Shown in pieces: positions 512 through 52,556 of a stretch of DNA of 64,000 nucleotides. Source of the DNA: Staphylococcus phage Machias; the sequence record MW349128.1. One strand, written 5' to 3'. A model generated the notes under the pieces. The model had not been told where the DNA came from. It made no database searches and was given only the letters and a program-made list of their open reading frames with translations. Numbering within the stretch: position 1 is the stretch's first letter; each line of letters begins with the position of its first letter. A program made the translations under genes and the position numbers.

Positions 512-934
512 ATGAAATTGGTTTATTTTACTTTAACAGGTAATAGTAAAAAATTTGCAGATAAATTAGACAAAACAATAGTTGGAGAACCTATTGAACT
601 TAATAGAAATAACTGTGAAGAAATAGAAATGGATGAAGATTATATACTTATATGTGGATCTTATAATACTCCTCATGCAATTTATAATCACGTTAAAAAG
701 TTCTTTAGTAATGGAATGAATTTAAGTAGATGTATTGGTATTGTAGGTTCAGGTAATAGAAATCTTAATTATGAATTCTTAACTACACCTAAGAAATTAT
801 GTAATGATTTTAATTTAGAATTATTAATGGGTATAGAATTATTCGGAATTAAAAATGAACATATCGAATTAAATAAAAAATTAAAAGAATTAAATAACTC
901 TAGTATTATAAATAAAGATTTAGAATTAGTATAG
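512..934 (+). CDS. nrdI: NrdI flavodoxin-like ribonucleotide reductase stimulatory protein
   Basis: N-terminal MKLVYFTLTGNSKKFADKL is the typical NrdI/flavodoxin FMN-binding start; position immediately 5' of nrdE; RBS ggagag. Confidence 0.8.
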   Translation: MKLVYFTLTGNSKKFADKLDKTIVGEPIELNRNNCEEIEMDEDYILICGSYNTPHAIYNHVKKFFSNGMNLSRCIGIVGSGNRNLNYEFLTTPKKLCNDFNLELLMGIELFGIKNEHIELNKKLKELNNSSIINKDLELV

Positions 935-954
935 ATATAAGGAGATAGGATAAA

Positions 955-1578
955 ATGCCAAAAGAAATAGATTTAACTTCAGAAAAATTTAAAGATTATT
1001 CATATAACGAATTAAACTCAAGAGGTTCACAATTAAAAGATGGTAATTTAGATTTAGAATTTGAATTAGCTTCAGTTAAAAAATACTTTTTAGATAATGT
1101 AAATAAAAATGTAAGATACTTTAAAACTTATAAAGAAAAAATTAACTATTTAGTAGATAATGATTATATTGATGGAGATATGATCAAAAATTATGATTTT
1201 GAATTTATTAAAGGATTAATGAAAGAATTAATGGCTTATAAACATAGATTCACTCGTTTATTAGGAGCTAAAAAATTCTATGAACAGTATGCAATGAAAG
1301 ATGATGCAGGAGAAATCTTATTAGAACTATATGAAGATAGAATTTTATTTGTAGCTTTATATTTAGCTGACGGTGATGAAGAATTAGCTAGAAATATTGC
1401 TAATGAAATTATTACAGGAACTTTCCAACCTGCCACACCAACATTCCTTAATGCAGGTAGAGTACGTTCTGGAGAATTAGTAAGTTGTTTCTTATTAACT
1501 ATGGAAGACTCTTTATCATCTATTTATAGAAATATCTCTAATGTAGCTCAATTAAGTAAACGTGGTGGAGGCGTAGGT
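955..1578 (+). CDS. nrdE: Ribonucleotide reductase class Ib large subunit NrdE, exon 1 (ends after ...SKRGGGVG)
   Basis: ATP-cone-less class Ib N-terminus; conserved GGGVG block at ~1567-1578; the reading frame then runs into intron sequence (KLYTFH stop); exon ends on a U. Confidence 0.8.
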
Positions 1579-2560
1579 AAACTATATACGTTTCATTAAG
1601 ATTTTTGAAAATTATAAATCTTAAATGATACTAATGCCTACGAAAAATCGTGTGAACTCATACTAAAGGGGTGTCTAATTATAATAATTAGGCTAACGGT
1701 CATAGCAGTTAATTATGCTGGTAAGAGAGACTAAGTCCTATTAAATTGATAGGATAGAGTTAATACCGTGCCAAGCTTTATACTATTCATAGCTTCTAGA
1801 TGGGAGCTTGATAAAATGAAAGAAAATGAAATATTTAAACAATTAGAAGAATTTCCAGACTATGATTTTGGTAGTCATGGAACTATAATATCTTATAAGA
1901 CTAAAAATCCTAGAAAAATTATACCCAAGATTGATAAGAATGGTTATCATGAAGTAGGATTGAGAGATTATACAAATAAAAGAAAATACAGAAAAGCACA
2001 TAGACTTATTCTATTAGCACATAATTATATAGAAAATTCAGAAGATATGCAAGTAAATCATATAAATGGTAAACCAGATGACAATCGTTTATCTAATTTA
2101 GAATGGTGTACATCTAAAGAAAATATGAAACATGCATATAATATTCTTAGTAAAAATAAAGATAATAATAAATTTAAAATAGAAGTTTTGATTAAAGATA
2201 AAAATGATAATATTTTTAATTTTGAATCTATGAGTAAAGCTTCAGTATTTATCAAAAGTTCTGTTGGTGGTCTAAGATCTTTCTGGGTTAGAAGAAAAAG
2301 ACCTACAAATGAATTTATTAAATATAAAGATTATGATATAATGTTTAAGCCTAGTGAAAACTGGATTAAAGAATATGGAAAAGAAATTGTTTAAAGTTAT
2401 GAATAGTAAATTGAAGGTGTAGAGACTATCGAAAAGAAAGTTTAATTACTTTACTTAGTAGAGTAGGTCAGAGATTAGTACTGATCGAAGTGCATGGCAT
2501 ATTATTTTAAATAATATGAAGATATAGTCCACTCATTATAGAAATATAGTGGTTAAAGTG
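1579..2560 (+). mobile_element. Group I intron nrdE-I1 (~980 nt) carrying an HNH homing endonuclease ORF
   Basis: Interrupts NrdE between GGGVG and ISLSNLRA; R-like GTAGAGACTATCG (~2420) and S-like AAGATATAGTCC (~2518-2529) elements, P7 pairing GACTA/TAGTC; 3' end ...aaagtg| ~31 nt after S; internal HNH ORF. Confidence 0.7.
1768..2394 (+). CDS. Intron-encoded HNH (HNH_3 / AP2-like) homing endonuclease; true start may be M at ~1813
   Basis: HGTIISYKT...NGYHEVGL...KAHRLILLAHNYIENSEDMQVNHINGKPDDNRLSNLEWCTSKEN is a classic HNH motif of I-HmuI/I-TwoI-type phage endonucleases; lies inside the nrdE intron. Confidence 0.7.
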   Translation: MPSFILFIASRWELDKMKENEIFKQLEEFPDYDFGSHGTIISYKTKNPRKIIPKIDKNGYHEVGLRDYTNKRKYRKAHRLILLAHNYIENSEDMQVNHINGKPDDNRLSNLEWCTSKENMKHAYNILSKNKDNNKFKIEVLIKDKNDNIFNFESMSKASVFIKSSVGGLRSFWVRRKRPTNEFIKYKDYDIMFKPSENWIKEYGKEIV

Positions 2561-2683
2561 ATTAGTTTAAGTAATTTACGTGCTGACAATGATCCAATTA
2601 AAGGTGTTGAAGGTGCAGCTTCAGGTGTAGTTCCAGTTATGAAAGTATTTGAAGATACTTTATCATATGTAAATCAACTGGGT
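2561..2683 (+). CDS. nrdE: NrdE exon 2 (41 codons: ISLSNLRADNDPIKGVEGAASGVVPVMKVFEDTLSYVNQLG)
   Basis: Not in the ORF track; translation aligns with the universally conserved RNR large-subunit segment (NLSRLRA...GVVPFMKVFNDTARYVDQGG in E. coli NrdA); bridges exon 1 to exon 3 in frame. Confidence 0.75.
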
Positions 2684-2845
2684 TAATTTTAATGGCTCAG
2701 TATAAATATTGTTAATTGCTGGAAAAGTTTACAAGCTTAATCAGCATCAATCAAGATGATTGTTCAACGACTAAATATAATAATACTTATTAATAGTATA
2801 AGATATAGTCTAATCTATATGAATTTCATATAGTTAATATAAATG
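2684..2845 (+). mobile_element. Mini group I intron nrdE-I2 (~162 nt, ORF-less)
   Basis: P ATTAATTGCTGG (2712-2723), Q TTAATCAGCATC (2746-2757), R GTTCAACGACTAAAT (2762-2776), S AAGATATAGTCTAAT (2800-2814); ends ...ataaatG| at 2845; splices VNQLG to QRNGAGALYLNIFH. Confidence 0.7.
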
Positions 2846-4300
2846 CAACGTAATGGAGCTGGAGCTCTTTATTTAAATATTTTCCATAAAGATGTAGTAA
2901 AATTCTTAGATACTAAGAAAGAAAATGCTGATGAAAAAGTAAGATTAAAAACTATTTCATTAGGTTTAACAGTTCCAGATAAATATTATCAATTAGTTAA
3001 AGAAAATAAATCATTATATACATTTAGTCCATATGACATTAAAAAATATTACGATTTAGATTTCGATAGTATTGACTTTAATACTTATTATGATATCTTT
3101 GTAGATGATAAACGTATTAGTAAAGAGAAAATGTATGCTCGTGATTTAGAAACTACTATTAGTAAATTACAACAAGAATCTGGTTATCCTTATATCATTA
3201 ATATTGATACAGCTAATAGAGCTAATCCAATTAGTCATGGTACAATTAAAATGAGTAACTTGTGTAGCGAAATTCTACAAGTACAATACCCTTCATTAGT
3301 TGACGATAATCAACAATATGTTAAAACAGGAACAGACGTTTCATGTAATTTAGCTTCAACTATTGTACCTGGTTTAATGAAATCAAAAGACTTTGGTAAA
3401 TCAGTTGGAACTATGTTAAGAAGTTTAAATTCAGTAGCAGAAAAATCTAATATTGAAGCTGTACCTACAGTTAAGAAAGCTAATGATCTATTCCATACAG
3501 TTGGTTTAGGTGCAATGGGATTACACACTTATTTAGCTGAAAACCATATTCAATATGGATCAGAAGAATCTAAAGACTTTACTAATATTTATTTCATGTT
3601 ATTAAACTATTGGACATTAGTTGAATCAAATAAAATTGCTAAAGAAAAAGATGAGTCATTCTATTTATTTGAAAAAACTGAATATGCTGATGGCTCTTAC
3701 TTTGATAAACGTTATATTGGTAAAAATATTCAACCACGTACTGAAAAAGTTAAAGAATTATTTGAAGATATCTTTATTCCATCTGATAGTGATTGGGAAC
3801 AATTAAGAAATAATATTGTTATGGACGGTCTATACAATCAAAATAGATTAGCTGTAGCACCTAATGGTTCTATTGGTTATGTTAGAGAAGTATCACCTTC
3901 AATTCACCCTATTGTTGAATTAATTGAAGAGCGTGTAGAAGGTAAAACAGGTACTACTTTCTATCCAGCACCAGGTATTACACCAGACAACTTTGAATAC
4001 TTTAAGAAAAATGCATATCAACTGGATATGAGAGATATGATTGATTTATATTCAGAAGCTCAATATCATGTAGACCAAGGTATTTCAATGAATATTTACT
4101 TAATGAATGAACTTGATCCAGATATATATGAATGGAAAAAAGATTCTTTAGATAAAGAAACTACTACTCGTGATATTAGTAGATTACGTAACTATGCTTA
4201 TAGTAAAGGTATTAAATCTATGTATTATACTCGTATTTATTCACCAGACCATGATTCTCAATCTCAAGGAATAGTTGAATGTGAATCTTGTTCTATCTAA
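2846..4300 (+). CDS. nrdE: NrdE exon 3 (C-terminal ~485 aa)
   Basis: ALYLNIFHKDVVKFLDTKKEN..., NLCSEI (active-site Cys region), C-terminal CESCSI tail typical of class I large subunits. Confidence 0.85.
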   Translation, partial: QRNGAGALYLNIFHKDVVKFLDTKKENADEKVRLKTISLGLTVPDKYYQLVKENKSLYTFSPYDIKKYYDLDFDSIDFNTYYDIFVDDKRISKEKMYARDLETTISKLQQESGYPYIINIDTANRANPISHGTIKMSNLCSEILQVQYPSLVDDNQQYVKTGTDVSCNLASTIVPGLMKSKDFGKSVGTMLRSLNSVAEKSNIEAVPTVKKANDLFHTVGLGAMGLHTYLAENHIQYGSEESKDFTNIYFMLLNYWTLVESNKIAKEKDESFYLFEKTEYADGSYFDKRYIGKNIQPRTEKVKELFEDIFIPSDSDWEQLRNNIVMDGLYNQNRLAVAPNGSIGYVREVSPSIHPIVELIEERVEGKTGTTFYPAPGITPDNFEYFKKNAYQLDMRDMIDLYSEAQYHVDQGISMNIYLMNELDPDIYEWKKDSLDKETTTRDISRLRNYAYSKGIKSMYYTRIYSPDHDSQSQGIVECESCSI

Positions 4301-4314
4301 TTGGAGGAAATTAT

Positions 4315-4533
4315 ATGACATTAAAAGAAAAATTTGAAAGTAAATATAGAAATTTAAATAAAGAACCAGAAATTTTAATTGTAGTAATTAAACTACCAAG
4401 TGGAGCTAAGGAAGTAATTTCCAATAGCTCTGACTTGGATAATAAAGTTCATTATTACTTAGAAAATTATGATGATCAATTTAGACATGTTAGAGATAAA
4501 AAAGTAAAGATAATTGATTTTATATTAGTATAA
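4315..4533 (+). CDS. hypothetical small protein (start taken at MTLKEKF, RBS ggagga)
   Basis: ORF between nrdE and nrdF with a good RBS; no known motif. Confidence 0.3.
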   Translation: MTLKEKFESKYRNLNKEPEILIVVIKLPSGAKEVISNSSDLDNKVHYYLENYDDQFRHVRDKKVKIIDFILV

Positions 4534-4554
4534 AGAATAAGGAGAGTTACTTAG

Positions 4555-5628
4555 ATGACAACAAAAGGAAATTTCTTAACAAGTAGTAATGATAATAAAA
4601 GTTATTATAGTCCTATGAATTGGAATAAAGTAGACGATTATGTAGATTTAATGACATTTGATACTTTAGTATCACAATTTTGGACTTCAACACGTATTCC
4701 AGTTTCAAATGATATTAAAGCTTGGAATGGATTAGATGATAATACAAAAGATGTAGTTAATAAAGTATTTGCCGAATTAACTACTCTTGATACACTTCAA
4801 TCACGTGAAGGAGGAGATGCTTTACTTCATCATGCTCTTACACCTATGGAAGAAGATGTATTAAACAACATCAGATTTATGGAAAGTATTCACAATCGCT
4901 CGTATAGTACTATTTTTACTACTTTGTTAAATTCAAAACAAGTAGATGAAAACTTCAAATGGGTAGAAGAAAATGAACATGTTCAAAAGAAAATTAAATT
5001 GATTAATGAAGCTTATCAATCAGGTGATATCCTTAAAGTGCAAGCCGCTTCAGTATTCTTAGAGTCATTCTTATTTTATTCAGGTTTTTATACTCCATTA
5101 AGATTAAAAGATAGTCTTAAAAGTGTATTAGAAATCATTAAATTAATCTTAAGAGATGAGTCACTTCATGGTTCTTATATTGGATATAAATTTGGTAAAC
5201 GTTATGAAAAATTAGAAGAAAATGAACAAAACGAAATTAAAATGTGGGTAACTAATTTACTATTTGAACTTTATCAAGTTGAATGTGAATTCATTGAAGA
5301 AGTTTATACTGAAATTGGTTGGGCTGAAGATGTTAAAATATTCGCTCAATATAATGCCAATAAAGCTTTATTAAATCTTAAATTAGATCCTATTTTCGAA
5401 ACTACTGAAGAAGATGTAAATCCAATTGTAATGGCTGGATTAAAAACTTCTACTGGTAATCATGATTTCTTCTCTCAAGAAGGTAACGGATATCTTATTG
5501 GTAAAGCTGAAAATACTAAAGAAGAAGATTATGATTCAATTGATGTTAATGAACTTAATAAGAATATCATTGATTCATATAAAGATAAAGCAGATGATAG
5601 ATTTAGTCATAGTTACTATATAGATTAA
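4555..5628 (+). CDS. nrdF: Ribonucleotide reductase class Ib small subunit NrdF
   Basis: Di-iron ligand blocks (ESFLFYSGFY, LRDESLHGSY) and overall R2 architecture; RBS aaggagag. Confidence 0.85.
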   Translation: MTTKGNFLTSSNDNKSYYSPMNWNKVDDYVDLMTFDTLVSQFWTSTRIPVSNDIKAWNGLDDNTKDVVNKVFAELTTLDTLQSREGGDALLHHALTPMEEDVLNNIRFMESIHNRSYSTIFTTLLNSKQVDENFKWVEENEHVQKKIKLINEAYQSGDILKVQAASVFLESFLFYSGFYTPLRLKDSLKSVLEIIKLILRDESLHGSYIGYKFGKRYEKLEENEQNEIKMWVTNLLFELYQVECEFIEEVYTEIGWAEDVKIFAQYNANKALLNLKLDPIFETTEEDVNPIVMAGLKTSTGNHDFFSQEGNGYLIGKAENTKEEDYDSIDVNELNKNIIDSYKDKADDRFSHSYYID

Positions 5629-5655
5629 TAAACAAATGTATATGATTAATTTGCA

Positions 5656-5693
5656 GCCCTAACATTTCTAACTGAGATGTTAGGGCATTTTTT
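5656..5693 (+). terminator. Rho-independent terminator after nrdF
   Basis: GCCCTAACAT...ATGTTAGGGC stem followed by TTTTTT. Confidence 0.6.
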
Positions 5694-11040: not shown

Positions 11041-13202
11041 TAATAATTTATTCTAGAGTATATGTGACATAATGTTATAATATCTAAATTCTCAGTTTCA
11101 TTCAATAATCTGTCTTTCCAATTTTCTCCGAGATCGTATATTGTTTCACCAATTTCACTTTCAGTAAAATTCTGTAGCGGAACTAATTTAGCGTCATACT
11201 TATTAAATTTGTTAATATATCCATCATAAGTATAATCTTGACTCAGATATTTAATGGATTCAAATACAAAAGGTTTAAATATCATATATCTATCAAATTG
11301 CATATCATCATGTATCATTAAAATTTTAGGTAAATAATGAGATTTTATTGGGAAAGAAATATCTAAATTCTGTATTGGATTTTTATATCTAATATCGAAT
11401 TCTAATTTTCTAGTGTTATAATCAAATTCATTAATAGCATAATATATAGGAGGTTTTTCTATATAAAACTCAATATTATCTTCAGTATCTATATATTCAC
11501 TAATACTTCTAAATGATCTTGATTTTTCACCATCAATATTATTTAATTCATCATCATTATTTGTTTCTACATAATCCTTAAATATGAAATAATGATCTTT
11601 AAGATTAGGGTATAATAATGCTTTTGGATTGACATCTGAATGTTTTTCAATGGTATTTGAATTTATTATCAATGAGTCAAATAAAAAATTATTTTCATCA
11701 GACACTGTTATTTTAATTTCATTTTCTTTTTTCAGATATACTTCTTTAATACGATCATCTATACCTATATCAGTATTTCTCTTATATAAAGATAATGTAC
11801 ATAAATCATTATGATCTCCATATACTTTAGCTAAGTAATTTTTACCATTTATACTAATTATTGCTTCTTCTTTTTTATTATTAACTTCATTCCTATTTTT
11901 TCTTCTAAACAGTAAATTGAATGTGTACATTCCGGATTCAGTTAATTTGATTTCATTTTTAAGTGTACCTGTTAAAATTGTAAATTTATTGTTCATTCTA
12001 TTAACTTCATCAATAGAAGTTAATTTACCATCTATCTTTACAGTTTCTAAAATATTTCCAGTACCCATATTTAATGAATCATTATCTACATAAAAATCAC
12101 TCATTGGAATTATAGTACGAGTGCCAATCTTAAAGTCGTTATAAGTTTTAACATAAAAAGGATTTTTGGATTCAGGAACTTCAGTCTCTTGAAGTATAAT
12201 AATATCTATATCATTATTTTTAGTAGAGAATCTTTCATCGTATTCAAATTTAAACGTATGTTTTCCTTTTTCCAAATACAATGGTACTTCTTCATAAAAT
12301 TCATTTTCTGAATCTCTATAAAATTCTAATATAGATCTATTCCATATAAATTCCCTATCTGTCGGAGATCTAAAATAGTACCCTACATTATCTACAAATA
12401 CTTTGTTCACTGTACCATTACTAAAATGGTTTCCATTTTTACATCTAATTTCATAATAAGAAGAATTAGGAATATAAATGTTCATTTCCAATATTCCATC
12501 CTCAATAGTTACATAACCTTCTCCAAGAAATCTATCATATCCTGATTTTCTTTTATAAGCTCCATCAAAGTTACTTTCCCTTGTTTTATATATATCACCT
12601 AGATATGCATCATAAAATATCCTACCGTCATCTAATAATCCTTCATGTATTAGTCCATCTATAATTTCAGATTCTTTTAATACTTTACGATTATAAGCAT
12701 AATCTTTAGGATACTTTCTATTATCTTGATATATTGGTGGGTAAGGTTCGATTTTCACTTCCTTTCTTTCTATACTATTAAAAGACAAATCTTCATATTC
12801 TATATTCCCTATGAAGTTTGTGTCATAAATTCTCTCTGTTTTACCTAAATAATTATAGAATATAGTAAATAAGTCATATTTTAATTCACCAATAATTTCA
12901 TAAGGTCTTTCTTCATATACTAAAATATCTGAAGAAATATCCTCTAATCTAAAGGTTGGATTCTCTAAACCATATTCACTTTTGATATAATCTTCTGATT
13001 TTGGAATATCAAGTGTATTATCTTCATTAAATGTAAATTTATTATATTCCTCAGAATTAGATTCCACTCTTAATATTAATTTATCACTTTTCTTTGTTTT
13101 AGTTTCGATTAAAGTTTTATTTTCATTATCTTTAATTTTAGTTATTACAATGTCTCCAGAATTGTGTTTATCAATTAATTCTTCTATTCTATATAATTTC
13201 AT
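11040..13202 (-). CDS. hypothetical protein (720 aa), leftward virion/tail module
   Basis: Long ORF, last gene of the minus-strand block. Confidence 0.5.
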   Translation of the reverse strand: MKLYRIEELIDKHNSGDIVITKIKDNENKTLIETKTKKSDKLILRVESNSEEYNKFTFNEDNTLDIPKSEDYIKSEYGLENPTFRLEDISSDILVYEERPYEIIGELKYDLFTIFYNYLGKTERIYDTNFIGNIEYEDLSFNSIERKEVKIEPYPPIYQDNRKYPKDYAYNRKVLKESEIIDGLIHEGLLDDGRIFYDAYLGDIYKTRESNFDGAYKRKSGYDRFLGEGYVTIEDGILEMNIYIPNSSYYEIRCKNGNHFSNGTVNKVFVDNVGYYFRSPTDREFIWNRSILEFYRDSENEFYEEVPLYLEKGKHTFKFEYDERFSTKNNDIDIIILQETEVPESKNPFYVKTYNDFKIGTRTIIPMSDFYVDNDSLNMGTGNILETVKIDGKLTSIDEVNRMNNKFTILTGTLKNEIKLTESGMYTFNLLFRRKNRNEVNNKKEEAIISINGKNYLAKVYGDHNDLCTLSLYKRNTDIGIDDRIKEVYLKKENEIKITVSDENNFLFDSLIINSNTIEKHSDVNPKALLYPNLKDHYFIFKDYVETNNDDELNNIDGEKSRSFRSISEYIDTEDNIEFYIEKPPIYYAINEFDYNTRKLEFDIRYKNPIQNLDISFPIKSHYLPKILMIHDDMQFDRYMIFKPFVFESIKYLSQDYTYDGYINKFNKYDAKLVPLQNFTESEIGETIYDLGENWKDRLLNETENLDIITLCHIYSRINY

Positions 13203-13814: not shown

Positions 13815-14005
13815 CCTGGTTTGTTAAATCTTGATTTTATATATTAAATATAAAGGCAAGACCTTGTATAAAATACACTTGGCTCAGTGACTAACGTATA
13901 AGGGAACCCTTATACTCCTTGTAAAGCTAATCGGACATTAGCTTATCACCCGTTTATCGTCTCCCGCTACCCGCAGGCGACTCTCATATCTTTTATTTTG
14001 TGAGA
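13815..14005 (-). ncRNA. Candidate TnpB guide (omega/right-end) RNA scaffold
   Basis: Only markedly GC-rich, stem-rich stretch in the region; stems read on the minus strand (as transcribed): AAGCTAAT/ATTAGCTT, GTATAAGGG/CCCTTATAC; lies directly 3' of the tnpB stop, where IS605 omega-RNAs map. Confidence 0.4.
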
Positions 14006-15199
14006 TTAAACATATTTTAAATCTAGAATATTTTTAGCTGCATTTAAATCTCTATCAAGAACTACATCACAATTAGGACAATCATGAGTATCATCACCTA
14101 AAACTAATTTCTCTTTATTAGTTCTAACATAACCACATGATGAACATGTCTGTGTAGTCTTTTTCTTAGTAATAATATTTAATTCATTATCATAAAAATT
14201 AGATTTAAATTTTAATTTTTCTAAAAAATCATACTTACCAAATCTTCTATTAGAACGTCTAAGATTTCTGAATCTATCAGATATTTTATGTGGATATGGT
14301 TCTATATTGATTACTTTATAATTTTTAACTAACCAATTAGTAATTTTGTCCCTATGATCTTCCAACATATCATATTCTCTATTATAAGACTTTCTTAATT
14401 GTTTTAAAAGTTTGTAATATGATTTTGAATAATATTTTTTTCTATCTAATTTAGATTTAATTTTTTCAGTTTTTCTTTCTTGTTTCCATAGAATATTCGG
14501 TATTTTAAATTCAAATACTTGACCGTTTGAGTCTACAGCAGCTAAAGGAGTTTTTATCCCCATATCAATACCAATTGAATAATTATTTTCTCTCTGTTTC
14601 TTATAATTGATTATCTCATAAGTTATAGAGATGTAGAATTTTTCATTCTTTCTGCTTATGGTGTAATATTTAAAATTAATATCGTTAGAGTTAATAAATT
14701 TTAAAGATTCCTTAGTTTTAATAACAAAAGGTTTAATTCCTTTCATTGCAGAAACTCTTATCCATTTTTTAGATAAAAATTTTACAGGTAAACTTAGTTT
14801 ATCTTTAACTATAAATCTAAATGAATCGTTAGAATATTTTTTCTTTTTAAATTTAGGTTTAAATTTATCACTATCTATATAATTTTTAGATTTTCTAGCT
14901 TTACTCTGCATTTCATAGTATTTAGAAAAAGTCTGATTTAGATCTTTTAAAGCTTCTTGTCTAACCATACTATTAACTTCATAAAGATAAGGATAATTTC
15001 CAGAATTTTGAATTTCGTTGTTTAATTTCTTTTGAAAATCAAATCCACTAAATTTCTTATCATCATCAATATTCTGATAATCTTCTAAAGCCATATTCCA
15101 TACTTTTCTTCTTACACCAAAGCATTTATTGAAATAATTCTTTTGGTCTTGATTTGGGTATATTCTAGTTTTGAAAGATTTAACTATTCCTTTTTTCAT
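14006..15199 (-). CDS. tnpB: TnpB (IS200/IS605-family OrfB) RNA-guided-nuclease-like protein, 397 aa
   Basis: RuvC-I GIDMGIKTPLAAV, zinc finger CSSCGY...CPNCD, RuvC-III DRDLNAAKNI; strong RBS aggaggtg; no tnpA present. Confidence 0.85.
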   Translation of the reverse strand: MKKGIVKSFKTRIYPNQDQKNYFNKCFGVRRKVWNMALEDYQNIDDDKKFSGFDFQKKLNNEIQNSGNYPYLYEVNSMVRQEALKDLNQTFSKYYEMQSKARKSKNYIDSDKFKPKFKKKKYSNDSFRFIVKDKLSLPVKFLSKKWIRVSAMKGIKPFVIKTKESLKFINSNDINFKYYTISRKNEKFYISITYEIINYKKQRENNYSIGIDMGIKTPLAAVDSNGQVFEFKIPNILWKQERKTEKIKSKLDRKKYYSKSYYKLLKQLRKSYNREYDMLEDHRDKITNWLVKNYKVINIEPYPHKISDRFRNLRRSNRRFGKYDFLEKLKFKSNFYDNELNIITKKKTTQTCSSCGYVRTNKEKLVLGDDTHDCPNCDVVLDRDLNAAKNILDLKYV

Positions 15200-15249
15200 T
15201 GTTTAATTTCACCTCCTAATCATATTATATAAATATGTTAGGAAATTCC

Positions 15250-15300
15250 TGATATGAATTTTTTATCAGTATTTTATACAATCTCTAAATTAGTAATTTA
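15250..15300 (-). repeat. IS605-type left-end subterminal hairpins
   Basis: Perfect palindromes CTGATAtgaattttttATCAG and CTCTAAATTagtAATTTAGAG just 5' of tnpB. Confidence 0.4.
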
Positions 15301-15304
15301 GAGC

Positions 15305-15410
15305 ACAGACTATATCATACTCATTGATATGAGTGAATATATTTAGTCGTTGGACAAGTCTTATTGACTTGATGCTGATTGAGATAATAATCTATTCCAG
15401 CAATTAATAT
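15305..15410 (-). mobile_element. Group I intron catalytic core (mini-intron family copy) on the minus strand
   Basis: Reverse complement contains ATTAATTGCTGG, AATCAGCATC, GTCCAACGACTAAAT, ATGATATAGTCT in the same order and spacing as the other mini-introns. Confidence 0.65.
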
Positions 15411-15442
15411 TCTTTGCTAATTAAAATTACTTTTAATAGGGA

Positions 15443-16354
15443 CTATTTGTGTGAATAATCCGGATAATACATTGATGCACCATCTAAATGTTCCATAAAG
15501 TTACCTACAATACCACCAATAACTGGCATATTTGCTACCATATCATTAATACTATCTTTAATAGTTCTAGTAATTTTACCTAAAATAGAAGCTCCACCAA
15601 TACGAGCCATTTCTTTTTGTTCTCGTATTTCTTGGTTTTTATTATTAACTTGAGAAGCAATATCAGATTGATTATATTCATGCATTGCAGATTCTGATAT
15701 ACTAGTTGATTTATCTGCATAGTAAGCTAGTCCATAGTTTTTATCATCTTGTAGAGATCCACCTAGATCAAATGATCCTTTTAAACCCATTGATGCATGA
15801 ACTTGAGAAGCCATAGTTTGTACGTATTTATAATATTCAGCCATTTTAGGTTCAAAGCTTATCATACGACCATCTTTAGTATTACCGATACCTACTAAAG
15901 ATAAACCAGAGTTTACTAATCTATCCATTCCTTCACCAAAACTCCATAATTTACCTTCTCCTGGTTTACCAAATAATTTACCATTTAATTTAGGCATACC
16001 CGGCATTATAAATACTAAAGGTAAATCTAATTCAAATGTTCTTTTATATATTCTTCTATTAGGATCATCTAAACTAGAATAGTACATAGGCATTCCAAAT
16101 ACATCTAGTTCACCTTTAACATTTCTTAATTGTTTTTTATCTTTAGCATTTTTATCTGTTAAATATTCAGTTGCTTGTCTTTGATTACCCAAAGCATCCA
16201 TAAAAGCACCAGTATCTTTTTGAGTAGGATCATATTCATGATAGTCATAATCACCTTTTTTCTCATCAGCTTGAGGTATTAAAGCCATATCATCATCTGC
16301 CACTTTTAAAGGTTCTTGTTCCTTAGACTCTTTTTTATCTTTTTCTTCAGCCAA
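15443..16354 (-). CDS. hypothetical protein (303 aa; TTG start) of the leftward virion module
   Basis: ORF from the track; its stop lies ~9 nt before the predicted 5' end of the IStron-like intron. Confidence 0.5.
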   Translation of the reverse strand: MAEEKDKKESKEQEPLKVADDDMALIPQADEKKGDYDYHEYDPTQKDTGAFMDALGNQRQATEYLTDKNAKDKKQLRNVKGELDVFGMPMYYSSLDDPNRRIYKRTFELDLPLVFIMPGMPKLNGKLFGKPGEGKLWSFGEGMDRLVNSGLSLVGIGNTKDGRMISFEPKMAEYYKYVQTMASQVHASMGLKGSFDLGGSLQDDKNYGLAYYADKSTSISESAMHEYNQSDIASQVNNKNQEIREQKEMARIGGASILGKITRTIKDSINDMVANMPVIGGIVGNFMEHLDGASMYYPDYSHK

Positions 16355-44274: not shown

Positions 44275-44406
44275 AATATTTCACATCTCTTTCTTAGATT
44301 TATTTAGTTTATTAATAAATAGTATGTTTTGTTAATGATAGTTTAAAAATTTTAATAATAAAGAATAACTAGATTTTTATAATTATGTAGGAGGTTAGTA
44401 AACCAA

Positions 44407-45430
44407 ATGACAACAGAATTAAAGAATAAAGAAGAAAGAAAAAGAGCTTTAACTGGATATTTAGAACAATTGGTATGGATGGTTCAAAAGAATAATCCTG
44501 ATTTTGATAAAGAAGAAATATTAAAAGAATGTAGAGAATTTGTAAAAGAAAATGTTAAACCTGTTATGACAGAGGTATCAGGTCAAGAAATGAATGTTGA
44601 TTCTTTATTACGTACAGTTATTAATTCAAATTTAATAGTAACTGGATCAGGTTCGATTTATCAAACACAATCACAAAGAAAAAATTTAAATGCAGAGATG
44701 TTAAAAGACTTCATTGATTCACGTAAAGTAGCTAAACATAATATGTTTATAAGTAAAGGTGTAGACGATGTTAAATATCATAAATATATGAATGAACAAA
44801 AAACAATTAAGATCTTGGCTAATAGTTACTATGGTGCTATGATACAAGGAAATAGTATTTTCTATGATCCTTATTCAGGACCTGCTATCACATATAGTGG
44901 TGTTGATATTGTTACGACTTCAGCAATAGCTTTAGAAAGATTTATAGGTAGTAAAATATTCTTTATGAATATTAGTGAGATTTATAATTATATCGTAAGA
45001 ATATGTCAAGAAGAATATAAAGATCATGATATTAAGATAAATTCAGTTCCTACTGATAATGAAATATTAAAAGGTTTATTGGATAACGTAGAATATAATT
45101 TCTCTGAAGATGAAGAAAATGATTTAAAAGAATTCTTTAGTAATTTAACTCAAGATGAGAAAAATAGAGTTTATTTTAAAAATAATCTTTATGGTTTATT
45201 AGATCACACTGATATATTTGATAATAAAATTAGTAAAATGACAGGTAGAGAAGATTTCTTAGATCCGAACGAACCACCTGAAGATATGATACCATTATTA
45301 GATGAATTATTTGATATATTAGAAGACTGGGTTATTTATAATTATCAAGATTACAATAGAATGTATAGAATGAATTATAAAAAACGTAGAAGTGTACTTA
45401 CAATCGATTATGATAACATGGTCGCTGCTT
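44407..45430 (+). CDS. Family-B DNA polymerase, C-terminal half, exon 1 (motif B to motif C); no exonuclease/motif-A region in this gene
   Basis: Kx3NSxYG motif KILANSYYGAM; following IFYDPYSGPAITYSGVD (compare RB69 FRYYDLRNATAITTFGQ); motif-C-like VLTIDYDNM at the very end; strong RBS taggaggt means it is an independent start. Confidence 0.65.
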
Positions 45431-45591
45431 AAAGTAATTTAAGTTGATTCACATTATTAATTGCTGAGAAAGTATTTATTAAATTAATCAGCATCAATCA
45501 ATATGATTGTTCAACGACTAAATATAATGATACTCATAAAGAGTATATGATATAGTCTATTTTATATTTAAAAATATAATATTAAAGACAG
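45431..45591 (+). mobile_element. Mini group I intron polB-IA (3' end uncertain: 45591, 45603 or 45612)
   Basis: 5' aaagtaatttaagttgat..., P TTAATTGCTGAG, Q TTAATCAGCATC, R GTTCAACGACTAAAT, S ATGATATAGTCTAT; the in-frame continuation has no stops. Confidence 0.6.
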
Positions 45592-45840
45592 ATAGTAACT
45601 TCGTACATTTAGATCCATTATATCAAAAAATGAAAGAAAAGAAACCTGAAGATTTCCCTATTGCAGAAAATGGTTTAGAAGATAAATTAGAACAACGTGT
45701 AGGTAATATATCTATTATTAACTATCAAATTACTAAATTGCTAGAATTATCTTATCATAGATTCTGTAAAGATTTAGGATTAGAAGATGAACATTTAGGT
45801 GTTATATCTATGAAAAATGAGTATGTAAATGCTCCAGTAT
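45592..45840 (+). CDS. DNA polymerase B exon 2 (~83 aa)
   Basis: Open frame ...LDPLYQKMKEKKPEDF...NEYVNAPV joining exon 1 and exon 3 in frame. Confidence 0.55.
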
Positions 45841-45996
45841 ACAGTAATGTGTATTAGTAAATATTATTAATTGCTGAGACAAAATAAAATTAATCAGCAT
45901 CTTCAAATAATGAAGTTCAACGACTAAATATAATAATTCTTAATAATAAAGAATATGATATAGTCTAGTCTTATATTTAAAATATAAGTATAAACG
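45841..45996 (+). mobile_element. Mini group I intron polB-IB
   Basis: 5' acagtaatgtgtatt..., full P/Q/R/S set; 3' end ...ataaacG|; the E2(t)+tt+E3 junction reads ...NAPV-F-LLDKQ in frame. Confidence 0.65.
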
Positions 45997-46697
45997 TTTT
46001 ACTTGACAAACAGTTAACAACAGATAAAAAGAAAACTTATGCTTCATCAGTAATTCAACAAGAGGGTAATTTAGTTCAACCACCAGACTTAGATGTTAAA
46101 GGTATGGCTATTAGAAAAGTTAATACTAATAAACGTATTAGAGAATTATTTACTGAAATATTACAAAAAGATATCTTAGAAAATAAAACTGGAATTGATA
46201 GAATTGGAATTATACGTAAATATAAAGAAATTGAAGAAATGATTAAAAAATCATTAGAGAATGGTGATATTGAATTCTTAAAACCTGGTAAAGCTAATAA
46301 CGCAGAAGTATATAAAGATCCTTATACACAAATGAATTATAGAGCAGCTTTATCATGGAATTTAATGTATCCAGATAAAGAAATATCTCTTCCAGCAAAT
46401 ATCTTAATGGTTAAATTAAATATTAAATCATTTGGAGATATTAAGGATAAAGTTGATGATGAAGAATTATTAGATAAATTTAGAGAAGTATTTAGAAACG
46501 AAAGATTAGTTAAAAATGGAATGAATGTAATTGCAGTTGAAGGTAATACAATTCCTGAAGAATTTAGACCTTTTATTGATTATGATTCAATGATAGAAGA
46601 TCATATTAAACCAGGTAAAGATATTATTGAATCTATTGGAGTTAAAGTGTTAGAATCTTCAAATAGTTCTTTCGTATCAAATATGGTTAAATTTTAA
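45997..46697 (+). CDS. DNA polymerase B exon 3 (C-terminal thumb; KGxxxRK = KKRY-like motif)
   Basis: ...PPDLDVKGMAIRKVNTNKR... in the same frame as the track ORF 46104-46697, open upstream to the splice site. Confidence 0.6.
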
Positions 46698-46720
46698 AAA
46701 AAAAAAGGAGGGTATATTTA

Positions 46721-47224
46721 ATGAGATACTTTTTATTTAAACCTAAAAAGTTTCAAGAACTATTTGAAACTGAAAAGAAATTATCATCTGTCTTTGAATA
46801 TTATAGAGATATGAAAAAAGATATTGTATTTAAAGTTGATGAAAATGATGATATTTTTATGATGTTATATAATATTTTAAGTGATGAAATATTACCTTTT
46901 ATAAGATGTAAAGTATACAATAAAAAAGATGGAGAAATACTAAAAGCATCAGAATTATATGTCCCTATTAGTTTGGATATTCATAAAGAAATAAATATAA
47001 ATAAAAATAGTATAGAGTATGATTCTAACATGCCTTATAAACATGGTTTAATTGAATGTCCATCTATTGACGAAGATAATACTAACAATTATCTTCGTTT
47101 AAATTTTCAATATAATGACAAAGATGATTATTTTTATATTTACTTAAATGATATTTATGCTATTTTTGAAGAGATAGATAAAACAGAATTTATGAAAATA
47201 GAAACTAAAAAGAATTTTATGTAG
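46721..47224 (+). CDS. hypothetical protein (167 aa)
   Basis: RBS aaaggaggg. Confidence 0.45.
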   Translation: MRYFLFKPKKFQELFETEKKLSSVFEYYRDMKKDIVFKVDENDDIFMMLYNILSDEILPFIRCKVYNKKDGEILKASELYVPISLDIHKEININKNSIEYDSNMPYKHGLIECPSIDEDNTNNYLRLNFQYNDKDDYFYIYLNDIYAIFEEIDKTEFMKIETKKNFM

Positions 47225-47283
47225 ATTGAAAAAATTTATTATTTTCATATAAAAATTCTTGCTTAATTTTTAATTTTATGTTA

Positions 47284-47300
47284 AAATATATATTATAAAA
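47284..47300 (+). promoter_or_regulatory. Promoter-like motif AAATATATATTATAAAA (copy 2)
   Basis: Exact 17-mer, 62 nt upstream of the 47362 start. Confidence 0.45.
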
Positions 47301-47361
47301 ACGAGAATATGTCACTATTAAAATTAAACTTATTCTTAATAAATTTGGAGAGTGAAAAGAA

Positions 47362-48672
47362 ATGGCAAAACAATCAGATGTATTTAGTAAAAAGAAATCA
47401 TTATATAGAAAAAATGGTAGAAAAATACCTTCTAAGTTTAGAAAGATGGATGTAGATGGTACTTGGTTTTATAGATTTGATCATAATAGATTTATCATTG
47501 ATAATTTAACTAGATTTATGGAAGATAAAGAATTAAAAAAATTATTAAATGATTATAGAAATAATTATGATAATAAAGAAAAATTTAATAATGATTGTTA
47601 CTTCTTTGAATTAGATAAAGATATACCTAAATTAAATAAATCTCAATTAAAGATATTCTTCACTCATTTATCTAGAAAACATATTGGAAAAGATTTCTTA
47701 AAAAATATTACTTTGAAAGATAATTCTAAATTAGAAATAAAAGAATTTGATGATTTAGAAATATGGTCAAGAGAACCTGATAAAGAAGAAGTATATGACG
47801 TTGGTTATCTTGATATGAAAGATTATAGAATGATTGCTCATATTGATCATGAAAATGAAGAAATTGTTATTCATACAGATATTGAAGAAGAAAATCCAAA
47901 ATCATATAGTACTTTAATTAGTTCTTTAGAATCAATTGAAATTGATGATTATTATGAAGATATTAGCTCTGATGAAATAAGAATTAAATTAAATGACTTT
48001 AATTTAAGAAAAGTATTTAATAAGACTAATAGTAAAATATTTAAAGTTATTTTACCAGTTACTTATAATTATGAAGGTTTTGATGATCAAGTGTCCTTCT
48101 TATTTGATAATTTCAGTAAAACATATATTAAACAACTTGAAAAAGAAGAATACGATAAGAAAATGCCTATCGGAGGACAACCTTATCATTTAAGACCTGA
48201 AAATAGACCTTATTATGCTAAACGTAGAATAATTAAAGATTGGAATATTTATGAAATATTTGATGAAGATAAAGATGGATATAAATTATTCAGTGTTAAA
48301 GATGATCAAGGGTTTATTTATTTAATATACTATATTGGTAAGAATTATCATGGTAAAGGTATAATAGTTAACGGTAAAGAATCTCCAGAACTTCAAGATC
48401 CGTCTAATTATAGAAAATCAGTTAAATTAAAAGATATTTATTACAGTGTATTAATTTCACAAGCTAAATATAATCTAATGAAGAAAAATAAATTTGATAT
48501 TTATACAGCTTTTGATACATCCAACCCTAAATATATGACAATTTCAGATGAAGAAAATATTCATACAACTGATTTCTTAATACCTGAAAGACCATTTAAA
48601 ATTAGACAAACTAAATTTAGAGAAGATAAAATATCAAATTTAAAAGATAAATTCGTAGAGGAGTTTGAATAG
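47362..48672 (+). CDS. hypothetical protein (436 aa)
   Basis: RBS ggagagtg. Confidence 0.45.
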   Translation: MAKQSDVFSKKKSLYRKNGRKIPSKFRKMDVDGTWFYRFDHNRFIIDNLTRFMEDKELKKLLNDYRNNYDNKEKFNNDCYFFELDKDIPKLNKSQLKIFFTHLSRKHIGKDFLKNITLKDNSKLEIKEFDDLEIWSREPDKEEVYDVGYLDMKDYRMIAHIDHENEEIVIHTDIEEENPKSYSTLISSLESIEIDDYYEDISSDEIRIKLNDFNLRKVFNKTNSKIFKVILPVTYNYEGFDDQVSFLFDNFSKTYIKQLEKEEYDKKMPIGGQPYHLRPENRPYYAKRRIIKDWNIYEIFDEDKDGYKLFSVKDDQGFIYLIYYIGKNYHGKGIIVNGKESPELQDPSNYRKSVKLKDIYYSVLISQAKYNLMKKNKFDIYTAFDTSNPKYMTISDEENIHTTDFLIPERPFKIRQTKFREDKISNLKDKFVEEFE

Positions 48673-48675
48673 TAT

Positions 48676-49410
48676 ATGGAGGATAATGAATATATGTATA
48701 CAGAAGATGAAATGAATACAGGTCATATAGTTGCGGATTGTGATGAAGTTTTAGTCAATATATCGCCAAAGATAGTTCAATTAATGCATGAAGATTATGA
48801 ATATTATAATCAATTCTTTAGATTATCTGAAGATTTTGATTATAATAAACATTATGATGTAATATTAAGTAGACCTGAATACTATATAGATCAATGGTTA
48901 GTTAGAAAAGATGTTTATAATAACTTTTCAGAAAAAGAAGTTAATGAAGCAAGAGAAAGACTACAAAATGAAATTATATTTAAAAAAGATTTATATGATG
49001 AACTTCAACCAACTAATTTAGGTAGAAGTTTATCATATACCATTAATACACCGTTAATGAATAAATTAACTATCGTTACTAAAACTTCAGATAATAATCT
49101 AAAATCTAAAGAGAAGTTTTTAAAAACTTTATTTAGAGGAAGTATGGATAAAGTTGATATATTCTACTTAGAACCAGATGAGAAAAAATCTGATGTGATT
49201 AATTCTTTAGGATATGTTACTAGAATATATGAAGATGAAGTAAGTAATATTAGTGATATTATAAAGAACTGTCAAAATGTAACACAAACAGGAATTGATA
49301 TTCCTTCATTGGGATATAATCAAGATATCGATGAAGGAACGATATTAAAAGCTAAAGAAAAGAAAATTGATTTAAACTATTTCAGTTATATGGGACAAAG
49401 TATTAAATAA
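48676..49410 (+). CDS. HAD-superfamily 5'(3')-deoxyribonucleotidase-like protein (NT5C-like)
   Basis: N-terminal HIVADCDEVLVNISPKIV resembles HAD motif I (DxDxV) of NT5C-family enzymes. Confidence 0.4.
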   Translation: MEDNEYMYTEDEMNTGHIVADCDEVLVNISPKIVQLMHEDYEYYNQFFRLSEDFDYNKHYDVILSRPEYYIDQWLVRKDVYNNFSEKEVNEARERLQNEIIFKKDLYDELQPTNLGRSLSYTINTPLMNKLTIVTKTSDNNLKSKEKFLKTLFRGSMDKVDIFYLEPDEKKSDVINSLGYVTRIYEDEVSNISDIIKNCQNVTQTGIDIPSLGYNQDIDEGTILKAKEKKIDLNYFSYMGQSIK

Positions 49411-49419
49411 ACAAATAAT

Positions 49420-49470
49420 CCATGTTTGACAAATTCAAGTCAAACATGGATTTATTATAATTTTTTTTTT
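49420..49470 (+). terminator. Rho-independent terminator
   Basis: CCATGTTTGAC-aaattcaa-GTCAAACATGG followed by T10. Confidence 0.65.
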
Positions 49471-49508
49471 ATAAAAATTGACATTGAGGAAGGAAATTAA
49501 AATGAAAA

Positions 49509-49802
49509 ATGGACATTAAAGATTTCATAATAGTTTTTTCTTTATTCTATCTTATTTTAGTTGCTATACCGTCTGTAATATTCTTAAGTAAAATTAATTA
49601 CAAAAAGAGTAATAAAATTATTATATTATTCTTTAATATAATAATCGTTTTATTTATATGTATTACTGTATTACTGTATAATTTATTTAATAAAGAAGAT
49701 AATAAAGAATCACTAAAATATTATAATAAAGAAGAAAATATAATAGATTATTATATCGAAAAAGATATTAATCCATTATTAAAAGAAAGTGATGTGAAAT
49801 AG
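49509..49802 (+). CDS. small membrane protein (2 predicted TM helices)
   Basis: FIIVFSLFYLILVAIPSVIFL and IIILFFNIIIVLFICITVLLY. Confidence 0.4.
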   Translation: MDIKDFIIVFSLFYLILVAIPSVIFLSKINYKKSNKIIILFFNIIIVLFICITVLLYNLFNKEDNKESLKYYNKEENIIDYYIEKDINPLLKESDVK

Positions 49803-49805
49803 TAA

Positions 49806-50979
49806 ATGAAAGTAGATATGATAGATATTGAACAAGTCATAACTGATACAAATGCTAAAGAAGTAACCAATCCTGTATTTTTCGATTCAGGTATACTACC
49901 AAAAGAAGATGGTTTATTTTCATATGATATATTTGGTTTAATAGGTACTCCTGAAAGAAAAACCAATTTAGGTTGGATTAATTTAAAGGATAAATACCTT
50001 AATCCGGTGGCTTATAAAGCATTAAAAGATTTAGATAAAAATATTGAACTATGTATTCAGGGTTCAGAGTATTTTAAAGTAGAAAAAGGTCAATTAGTTC
50101 CTTCAGAAGATGGAGATACTGGACTGAATTTCTTATATGAAGTATTTGATGATTTAAAATTTAGAAAGAATGATTCTCGTATTAGATCTGAAAAAATTGA
50201 TATGATTAAAAATACAGATAAGCAAAAAATATTTGTAGATAAATGGCTAGTAATACCTGCTTTTTATAGAGACTTTAATCCTAATGAAACTTCAGGAGAA
50301 ATTCAAGATACTGAAGAAGTTAATAATATGTATTCTTCTATTATACGTTCTGTAGATGCTATTAGTTTTAATTCTTTTGGTTTTATTGCTAACAGTACTA
50401 AATATAATATACAAAATACATTATTTGAAATATATCAGAAATTTACTTCAGGAGAATTATCAGGTAAAACTGGTTTTATGCAAAAACGTATATTGGGTAA
50501 AACAGTAGATAATAGTACTCGTGCAGTTATTTCTTCACCTAAAATTAATTCGAATAGATGGGATGAAATGCAGATAGAGTTTGGTGAGTTAGGTGTACCA
50601 TTAACTCAATTAGTTACCTTATTTTTACCATTCTTTAATAAGTATATAATTGATTTTATTGAACTTCATAAAGATGCTTTCCAAACAGCTACTGGAAATG
50701 ATGAGAAAGAATTATCATTAGAAGAAGTGTATGAACAATTCGATGATAAATCTATTAAGAATATGCTAGAATTCTTTATTAAAGATCCTAATGAAAGATT
50801 TAGTCCTATATATGTAAATGATAGAGAAGGTAAACGCCATAAAGTTAAATTATTTGAAAAAACTTTGGGTAGAGATTTTACTGTAATTGATTTACTTTAT
50901 ATTGCTGCAACCGAAATAGTAGAAGATAAGCATGTTATGTATTCAAGATATCCGATTAATAAAATGGTCGCTGCTTAAA
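49806..50979 (+). CDS. Multisubunit RNA polymerase beta-prime-like subunit (N-terminal half), exon 1
   Basis: LPKEDGLFSYDIFG (compare KPERDGLFCERIFGP), GWINLKDKYLNPV (compare GHIELASPTAHIW), KRILGKTVDNSTRAVISSP (compare GKRVDYSGRSVIVVGP); no Zn finger, as in phiKZ/AR9-type phage RNAPs. Confidence 0.7.
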
Positions 50980-51140
50980 GTGATTTAAGTTGATAAACAT
51001 TGTTAATTGCTGAAATACTATTAATAAAGTTAATCAGCATCAATTAAATATAATTGTTCAACGACTAAATGCAATGATACTATTTAATAGTATATAATAT
51101 AGTCTAATTTATATAATACTTATATAAATATAATAAATGC
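50980..51140 (+). mobile_element. Mini group I intron rpoC'-IC (3' end uncertain, 51139-51156)
   Basis: 5' aaagtgatttaagttgat..., P/Q/R/S set, S at ~51100-51108, ...ataaatG at 51139. Confidence 0.6.
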
Positions 51141-51792: not shown

Positions 51793-51803
51793 TTTAAAAA
51801 TTC

Positions 51804-51840: not shown

Positions 51841-51866
51841 ATTGCTTTTATACAAAATACTTATTT

Positions 51867-52545: not shown

Positions 52546-52556
52546 GGAATGATAAA

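Follow-up and report, generated by a model that had tools for sequence, protein, structure and literature searches.

An nrdE gene broken by two insertions

How can Staphylococcus phage Machias make a complete ribonucleotide reductase (RNR) large subunit when the reading frame of its nrdE gene is broken twice? We examined this question in a window of 64,000 nucleotides (nt) of the phage (record MW349128.1; positions refer to this whole stretch), in which nrdE belongs to the class Ib RNR operon of a MarsHill/PALS_2-like Staphylococcus jumbo phage. An initial annotation, made from the sequence alone, had proposed that nrdE is interrupted by a group I intron of about 1 kb with an HNH endonuclease gene and, 41 codons later, by a miniature intron. 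Alignment with the uninterrupted nrdE of phage PALS_2, together with a match to the protein family TIGR04170, confirmed both insertions to the base, and the exons lie at the coordinates proposed there:

955-4300, plus strand: nrdE, three exons and two putative introns
955-1578, plus strand: exon 1, 208 codons, ending in ...RGGGVG; Pfam RNR_N, Ribonuc_red_lgN and RNR barrel positions 1-33
1579-2560, plus strand: intron 1, putative group I intron, 982 nt, phase 0, TAA at 1597-1599, last base G
2561-2683, plus strand: exon 2, 41 codons (ISLSNLRA...YVNQLG); Pfam barrel positions 34-74, E = 3.4e-10
2684-2845, plus strand: intron 2, putative minimal group I intron devoid of an open reading frame (ORF), 162 nt, phase 0, first three bases TAA, last base G
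2846-4300, plus strand: exon 3, 484 codons and stop, with NLCSEI and the C-terminal CESCSI; Pfam barrel positions 75-523, E = 8e-114

Excision of 1579-2560 (982 nt) and 2684-2845 (162 nt) yields an nrdE ORF of 2202 nt, equal in length to the uninterrupted PALS_2 gene. Its 733-amino-acid (aa) product aligns without a gap to PALS_2 NrdE over 733/733 residues (98.6% identity) and reaches 942.6 bits with the TIGR04170 model (RNR_1b_NrdE; cutoff 750) over profile positions 2-698 of 698, while exons 1, 2 and 3 tile the RNR barrel profile PF02867 at 1-33, 34-74 and 75-523 with neither gap nor overlap. This full-length match to an NrdE-specific model and the neighbouring nrdH, nrdI and nrdF genes identify the product as a class Ib NrdE. 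The junctions, set by alignment to intronless alleles, fall between codons at both sites. Exon 2, predicted at the outset to encode a segment of the RNR large subunit and shown to do so by its Pfam alignment, is joined directly to exon 1 in phages AH12, PB50, LY01 and PALS_2, and directly to exon 3 in PALS_2 and in L014 and L015, two Logan contigs assembled from two public sequencing runs. Two details of the initial annotation needed correction. Exon 2 is not wholly invisible among the ORFs, as a 45-aa ORF with a GTG start (2549-2686) contains it, albeit one seen only at a lowered ORF length threshold; and although both insertion sites abut conserved motifs of the N-terminal barrel, the catalytic NxCxE motif (NLCSEI) is located in exon 3 rather than at the insertions.

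The public genomes nearest to the window are PALS_2, S6, DC4, MarsHill, Madawaska, AH12, PB50, SA1 and LY01 (92-96% nt identity). Any one of them covers at most 72% of 900-4400, because the relatives lack one or both insertions.

The nrdE frame stops early in both insertions, with a TAA as codon 7 of the first and codon 1 of the second. Although gyrA provides an example of an intein in this phage group, in-frame stops within 1-7 codons make translation through the insertions impossible, and thereby exclude both inteins and read-through. An assembly artefact is equally hard to uphold, as intron 1 was assembled independently in the two sequencing runs of L014 and L015, and intron 2 is also found in AH12 and LY01. 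We consider both of these explanations, which deserve next to no credence, as already refuted by the sequence itself.

Alternatively, nrdE might be decaying or split, the insertions staying in the RNA, the fragments being non-functional or acting as separate polypeptides, and the phage relying on the host RNR. GenBank records of relatives indeed list the pieces as separate coding sequences (CDSs) for 'ribonucleoside-diphosphate reductase subunit alpha', and split multisubunit genes, e.g. those of RNA polymerase (RNAP) subunits, are normal in these phages. Separate polypeptides are contradicted by exon 2, whose 41 codons have neither a start codon nor a ribosome-binding site (RBS) of their own. 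Decay is contradicted by the gapless ORF of conserved length that excision restores, by exons that equal uninterrupted alleles in conservation (95.8% nt identity, zero frameshifts) and by the group I cores of both insertions, whose guides are complementary to the exons they adjoin (see below). We therefore hold a decayed or split nrdE to be highly improbable. Both insertions are, very probably, group I introns that are removed from the nrdE transcript.

Insertion 1 as a probable group I intron

An Rfam search of 1500-2900 placed the Intron_gpI model at 2442-2551 (39 bits, E = 4.5e-8), spanning the ...GAAGAUAUAGUCC... element and P9. Combined with the comparison of homologues described below, this gave the following partial structure:

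1630-1642, plus strand: internal guide; ACTAAT pairs with ATTAGT of the 3' exon (P10), GCCTACG with CGTAGGT of the 5' exon (P1)
2417-2560, plus strand: 3' catalytic part, from the Rfam alignment and RNAalifold; stretch identical in L014
2417-2431, plus strand: R element GTGTAGAGACTATCG, 5' strand of P7
2437-2452 and 2466-2486, plus strand: hairpins with compensatory changes relative to Sextaecvirus homologues
2499-2517, plus strand: P8-like hairpin
2518-2530, plus strand: S element GAAGATATAGTCC, 3' strand of P7
2529-2552, plus strand: P9 hairpin; the terminal G follows at 2560

The last 7 nt of exon 1, CGTAGGT (1572-1578), form the 5' strand of P1. With the contiguous guide, all seven pairs of P1 (including a terminal U.G) and all six of P10 can form, whereas the intronless exon sequence of PALS_2 offers merely 3/7 and 3/6 pairs respectively. 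In this PALS_2-type allele, junction 1 reads GGAGGAATTGGA/GTATCTTTA, the slash marking the site. Each 5' exon ends in T, supplying the U of the terminal U.G pair of P1, and G is the final base of each intron (G2560 and G2845). RNAalifold, run on ORF-deleted homologues of intron 1, returned compensatory changes at 15 pairs, of which four belong to P1. The initial prediction of a group I intron of about 1 kb with an HNH gene after GGGVG is thus borne out by an insertion of 982 nt that matches Intron_gpI and encodes an HNH_3 protein (41.5 bits).

Several observations weigh against reading the two insertions as spliced introns. Splicing itself is deduced from the sequence. The Rfam scores of introns 1 and 2 (39.0 and 37.7 bits) lie under the RF00028 gathering score of 50, and Rfam applied to the whole window, in gathering and E-value modes, returned zero intron matches; the two Intron_gpI matches came to light only when the search was confined to 1.4 kb. 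P3-P6 of intron 1 are not securely placed by the three homologues, two of which are nearly identical, and the low G+C content of intron 2 (22%) and its missing P2 put unaided folding in question. We attribute the low scores to peripheral elements that the model expects and that are absent here or interrupted by an ORF. The whole-window search would miss intron 1 and the seven miniature group I ribozymes described below because its speed filters drop AU-rich, reduced introns. The motif AAGATATAGTC taken alone was not significant in this AT-rich window (10 matches versus 4.6 expected).

Intron 2 is a candidate miniature ribozyme

For the second insertion, the initial annotation had suggested an intron of a genome-wide miniature family. 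At 162 nt, without an ORF and 41 codons past insertion 1, it has every core helix from P3 to P9 of a group I ribozyme, and the Rfam model aligns at 2675-2833 (37.7 bits, E = 1.1e-7):

2695-2701, plus strand: guide GCTCAGT, forming P1 with the last 7 nt of exon 2 (ACTGGGT); 7/7 pairs, terminal U.G
2707-2712 with 2777-2782, plus strand: P3
2717-2722 with 2741-2746, plus strand: P4
2725-2738, plus strand: P5
2748-2762, plus strand: P6
2769-2773 with 2806-2810, plus strand: P7
2783-2799, plus strand: P8
2815-2833, plus strand: P9

P2 is absent. The minimum free energy has a z-score of -2.57, and the covariance model built for this intron, R1, scores 182.7 bits. The guide co-varies with the exon: ACUGGGU faces GCUCAGU in the window, AH12 and LY01, and AUUGGGU faces GCUCAAU in PB50.

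A BLAST search and model R1 identified seven members of this family in the window, and a scan for the core pattern matched the same seven where chance predicts zero; each related genome has 10-33 BLAST places of the family. The expected multi-copy family was therefore found. A BLAST match of intron 2 at 11417-11449 was discarded as chance, as the core is missing and R1 does not find it. The following members interrupt other genes, their junctions being defined against the uninterrupted genes of PALS_2:

45409-45587, plus strand: mini-intron in family B DNA polymerase, 179 nt
45823-45996, plus strand: mini-intron in family B DNA polymerase, 174 nt
50957-51139, plus strand: mini-intron in virion RNAP beta-prime, 183 nt
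51342-51491, plus strand: mini-intron in virion RNAP beta-prime, 150 nt, inside the catalytic ADFDGD motif
51618-51759, plus strand: mini-intron in virion RNAP beta-prime, 142 nt

Alignment of the in silico spliced polymerase and RNAP products to their PALS_2 counterparts required zero gaps, and the RNAP subunit, at 503 aa, equals that of PALS_2. In an alignment of nine copies made with MAFFT, independently of any structure, 87.6% of cells are paired as against 29-46% with slid partners, with compensatory changes at 5/6 pairs of P3 and 4/5 pairs of P8. The values for 23 copies fitted to the model, an alignment that is hence biased towards the structure, are 93.8% versus 27-44%; 34/49 pairs show compensatory change, and 0/500 shuffles attained these values. 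RNAalifold on its own recovers P4, P6, P7 and P8. The group I core (P3-P8 with the P3/P7 pseudoknot and the P4-P6 domain) is complete and supported by covariation in the family.

Would so small an RNA splice by itself? Measured in six members, the family spans 142-183 nt and 19-27% G+C without P2, while the compact Azoarcus intron has 205 nt (PMC13168695). It could thus be too reduced to act without a protein cofactor or chaperone of phage or host. Set against this, compensatory change has kept all core helices P3-P9 and the P3/P7 pseudoknot, and the family interrupts DNA polymerase, virion RNAP beta-prime and nrdE, so that its removal must be efficient. Dependence on a protein, which would bear on catalytic autonomy only and not on the nature of the element, appears to us the unlikelier option, if a serious one; judging from the conserved core, we rather expect intron 2 to splice without protein help.

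Exact-pattern scans found zero copies of intron 1 or of the mini-intron in IMG/VR, and zero mini-intron copies in 185,579 bacterial and archaeal genomes (GTDB). The mini-intron pattern was present in four short contigs (L010-L013) of a single metagenome, Ga0079226, one of which (L011) has three copies in 2.5 kb; these contigs point to an unsequenced relative of still higher intron density. Tentatively, then, intron 2 may be one of a lineage-restricted, proliferating family that could comprise the smallest complete natural group I ribozymes and spread without a resident homing endonuclease, although the odds are somewhat against so broad a claim. If it is true, the family would lower the known minimum size of self-splicing group I cores.

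Three further observations concern individual copies. At 51342-51491, the usual rule (T before the 5' splice site, G at the intron end) gives a product in which DFDGD is destroyed, and we preferred a junction with C in place of T that restores the motif. In this sole DFDGD-restoring junction, the base before the 5' splice site is C (GGC/) and faces A of the guide (ACCAUCA); a C-A pair there would be an unusual departure from U.G.

An IStron-like element was found on the minus strand, an insertion of 1642 nt that is absent from PB50 and AH12 and splits a virion protein gene:

13816-15457, minus strand: IStron-like element
16354-15458 and 13815-13237, minus strand: exons of the split virion protein gene
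15438-15263, minus strand: mini group I core at the 5' end of the element
15199-14006, minus strand: TnpB ORF, 397 aa; Pfam OrfB_IS605, HTH_OrfB_IS605 and Cas12f1-like_TNB

Its tail of about 190 nt is relatively GC-rich, and the junctions read ...CCGGAT/...ACCAG/GTTTGG. Excision yields a virion protein of 491 aa that matches the PB50 protein at 490/492 translated positions. IStrons are known in Clostridium botulinum phages (PMC4227781); Staphylococcus is not mentioned in the text of that survey.

The segments 45409-45460 and 50957-51010 (plus strand) have a near-identical P1 loop and guide (..AUGGUCGCUGCUUAAAGU.AUUUAAGUUGAU..), and both follow ...CGAT/; the TnpB-bearing copy (15457-15400, minus strand) follows ...GGAT/. 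The shared ...GAT/ contexts hint at spread to look-alike targets, possibly via a transposon route.

Occupancy of the two sites among relatives

The two insertion sites were compared between the window, its relatives and the Logan contigs:

Site 1 empty, site 2 empty: PALS_2 (checked at the nucleotide level)
Site 1 empty, site 2 empty: S6, DC4, MarsHill, Madawaska, SA1 (from coverage and a single nrdE CDS)
Site 1 empty, site 2 with the ORF-less mini-intron: AH12, LY01
Site 1 empty, site 2 with the same ribozyme, its P8 loop holding an HNH ORF of the zinc-finger type: PB50
Site 1 with intron 1, site 2 empty: L014, L015
Site 1 with intron 1, site 2 with the mini-intron: the window

As every combination of presence and absence exists, the two introns, though merely 123 nt apart, appear to be gained or lost independently of one another. 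In PB50, the site-2 intron (L002, 2306-3013) encodes a cysteine-rich HNH protein of 179 aa, unrelated to that of intron 1, and the stop codon of its ORF overlaps the 3' strand of P7. Site 2 therefore displays the classical cycle, with endonuclease-bearing and endonuclease-free forms of one intron.

Intron 1 of L014 and L015 is 97-99% identical to that of the window (blastn), and the guide-matched exon flanks are identical. Between the window and L014, intron 1 differs at 10/982 nt (99.0% identity) and exon 1 at 24/624 nt (96.2%; chi-square ~14). An intron more similar than the adjoining exon would be of more recent origin than the gene that holds it, which fits an element that moved not long ago. 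Compared with PALS_2, no stretch of nrdE is more divergent than the 24 nt across junction 1, with 8 mismatches versus a gene-wide mean of 1.0 (standard deviation 1.3); we take this to reflect co-conversion or, alternatively, selection that keeps the exons complementary to the guide. Occupancy in some close relatives and vacancy in others, the pattern that marks a mobile HNH intron, thus applies to site 1.

The HNH protein of intron 1

The gene behind such mobility would be the one inside intron 1:

1816-2394, plus strand: putative HNH homing-endonuclease gene, 192 aa and stop, in the peripheral loop 1777-2412 of intron 1

It is preceded by an RBS (GGGAG, 1802-1806), and its product matches Pfam HNH_3 (PF13392) with 41.5 bits (cutoff 24.8) and the HNH endonuclease family PHROG 59 with 1.4e-31. 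A NUMOD4 match (PF07463; 17.8 bits) falls under the cutoff of 23.4, while the more distant homologues P0003-P0007 carry PF07463; the C-terminal 80 residues match zero Pfam families. The initial annotation had called for comparison with I-TwoI and I-HmuI, and the protein proved to be related to both: it shares 38% identity over 106 aa with Twort I-TwoI (E = 1.5e-17) and aligns with I-HmuI (1U3E) over residues 17-112 (E = 4.2e-8), with H82, N94 and N103 on the His...Asn...Asn motif. I-HmuI, the nicking HNH enzyme encoded in the SPO1 intron, was the sole solved structure matched and covers the N-terminal and catalytic half only. The exact window protein is not on record. A search of 5.8 billion proteins found P0001, 98% identical, which is encoded on L014 and L015 in the same nrdH-nrdI-nrdE context; no contig is recorded for P0002 (88% identical).

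Could intron 1 nevertheless be an immobile relic, its HNH protein inactive or re-purposed (as a maturase or competition factor) and its distribution due to loss and recombination? Such ORFs do decay, since an internal deletion in the homologue of Sextaecvirus PMBT8 removes the catalytic stretch. The window protein has Asn rather than Asp before the catalytic His (VNH versus VDH in I-HmuI), and its ORF differs from that of L014 at 5 nt, of which 1 is synonymous and 4 are nonsynonymous, which gives no evidence of purifying selection; both of these points count against an active enzyme. The genome is, moreover, mosaic, and recombination is frequent anyway. A relic is, however, difficult to reconcile with a full-length ORF that retains H...N...N and an RBS, with an intron 1 that has diverged less than exon 1 and with guide-matched exon changes clustered sharply at the junction, exactly as co-conversion predicts. 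On balance we judge a relic to be unlikely and favour, with fair confidence drawn from homology and distribution, an active and probably nicking homing endonuclease that would spread intron 1.

Comparison with known nrdE introns

Phage introns in nrdE have been described before, and the arrangement in Staphylococcus phage Twort had been put forward as a precedent. We reconstructed the Twort junctions from record NC_007021. In both phages, nrdE holds two phase 0 group I introns adjoining conserved motifs, one without an ORF and one with an HNH gene of the I-HmuI type. The order is reversed in Twort, with the ORF-less I1 first (429 nt by reconstruction, with which the abstract of the original Twort report is said to agree). 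Twort I1 follows NQG/GKREG, one codon upstream of site 2 of the window (NQLG/QRNG), and the I-TwoI intron lies far downstream near APNGSI rather than at GGGVG. Blastn of the window introns against those of Twort (I1 and I2 (I-TwoI); Landthaler et al., 2002, as cited in PMC3984707) gave nothing better than E = 0.02, and R1 had zero matches in the Twort locus. The precedent hence stands for the kind of arrangement, but the sites are not shared, one being a codon away, and close sequence homology was not detected.

The closest homologues of intron 1 in characterised genomes appear to be those of Sextaecvirus, not Twort. Phages PMBT8 (MK893987) and PG-2021_4 (MZ417338) have unannotated nrdE introns at the same codon boundary (GGGxx/I..L); PMBT8 and PG-2021_4/67/68 carry the intron at GGGIS/INL..., with ~71% nt identity to intron 1 in the RNA core. 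They share with intron 1 the R and S elements, the hairpins with compensatory changes and an HNH ORF (35-44% aa identity) that lies in the same loop, is intact in PG-2021_4 (194 aa) and lacks the catalytic stretch in PMBT8. Their guide differs, as GGAGAUG is matched to their own exon CAUCUCU with 4 compensatory P1 pairs relative to the window, and they have neither the P1 extension hairpin nor the P8-like hairpin seen in the window at 2499-2517. With genomes of ~90 kb versus ~265 kb for the jumbo phage of the window, they represent another phage family.

In PMBT8 (L005, 4385-5697), the NrdE match ends at residue ~588, and two 'hypothetical' ORFs come next (4517-5029 and 5183-5665); this suggests that this nrdE holds at least one further unannotated intervening element.

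Group I introns of nrdE and nrdF in the Bacillus cereus group and SPbeta-like prophages occupy multiple alternative sites in nrdE, have in-frame stops at or near their start and, where a site is occupied, asymmetric co-conversion tracts, and one and the same intron can occur with or without a homing endonuclease gene (PMC2504315). Each of those strains has one nrdE intron, unlike the window with its two. As for intron 2, the standard 'compact' group I model is the 205-nt intron of Azoarcus pre-tRNA-Ile (PMC13168695). Both are reduced ribozymes that miss several peripheral domains; intron 2 is 43 nt shorter (with family members down to 142 nt), lacks P2, is AU-rich and resides in protein-coding genes, and it is known here from its sequence.

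A model for splicing and spread

We propose that, in each intron, the internal guide would pair with the end of the upstream exon (P1, with U.G at the splice site) and an external guanosine would attack the 5' splice site. The freed exon would then attack behind the terminal G, ligating the exons and giving, after both reactions, a single mRNA for the 733-aa NrdE. The early stops at codon 7 of intron 1 and codon 1 of intron 2 may keep ribosomes off the ribozymes.

The route of spread proposed for each intron likewise derives from sequence comparison. In a mixed infection, the HNH protein would most likely nick an intronless nrdE near GGGxG/, and repair would copy intron 1 together with a few guide-matched flanking exon bases into the recipient. 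Intron 2, with no gene of its own, would persist because it splices; it may spread via an endonuclease acting in trans or formerly resident, or via co-conversion. In favour of an endonuclease, PB50 harbours an HNH ORF in P8 of this ribozyme.

Consequences for annotation

That phage nrdE genes contain group I introns with or without HNH genes is already textbook knowledge, and the nrdE case adds an example rather than a principle. Greater interest attaches to the miniature ribozyme family, which is unusually small and missed by standard annotation. In the paper on phage MarsHill, protein alignments led to the prediction of introns in the genes for RNAP, DNA polymerase, TerL, gyrB and protease; the passage on these introns neither names nrdE nor describes the RNAs. 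The DC4 paper found no introns with Rfam, Rfam-based screens report none (PMC10638138), and our whole-window Rfam searches reproduced this outcome, results that we ascribe to speed filters that drop reduced AU-rich introns. With nrdE pieces listed as separate genes and Rfam missing the introns, intron load is underestimated and essential genes are mis-annotated.

The natural alleles of nrdE (no intron; intron 1; intron 2; intron 2 with an HNH ORF; both introns) constitute a ready system for homing, co-conversion and the gain or loss of endonucleases. If the mini-introns self-splice, they would offer a very small natural group I scaffold for studies of ribozyme structure and for RNA circularisation tools.

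The nrd operon and its surroundings

The genes around nrdE are as follows:

6-194: NrdH, glutaredoxin-like (Pfam)
213-416: small IsaA-like ORF between nrdH and nrdI
512-934: NrdI flavodoxin (Pfam)
4555-5628: NrdF, RNR small chain (Pfam)

A small conserved ORF is located between nrdE and nrdF. The genome is a mosaic with respect to its relatives: the nrdE region (900-4400) is closest to PALS_2, S6 and DC4 (~96%), and the polymerase/RNAP region (44300-52800) is closest to PB50 and AH12 (96-98%), with PALS_2 and S6 at 80-84%.

The operon itself varies in gene content. Extra ORFs of 237-247 aa, which the window lacks, are present in L014 (2261-3004 and 3449-4162) and L004 (779-1492), occupying the intervals that separate nrdI from the IsaA-like ORF and from nrdE. 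The two in L014 have no Pfam match on record. These ORFs are another variable cassette of the nrd locus.

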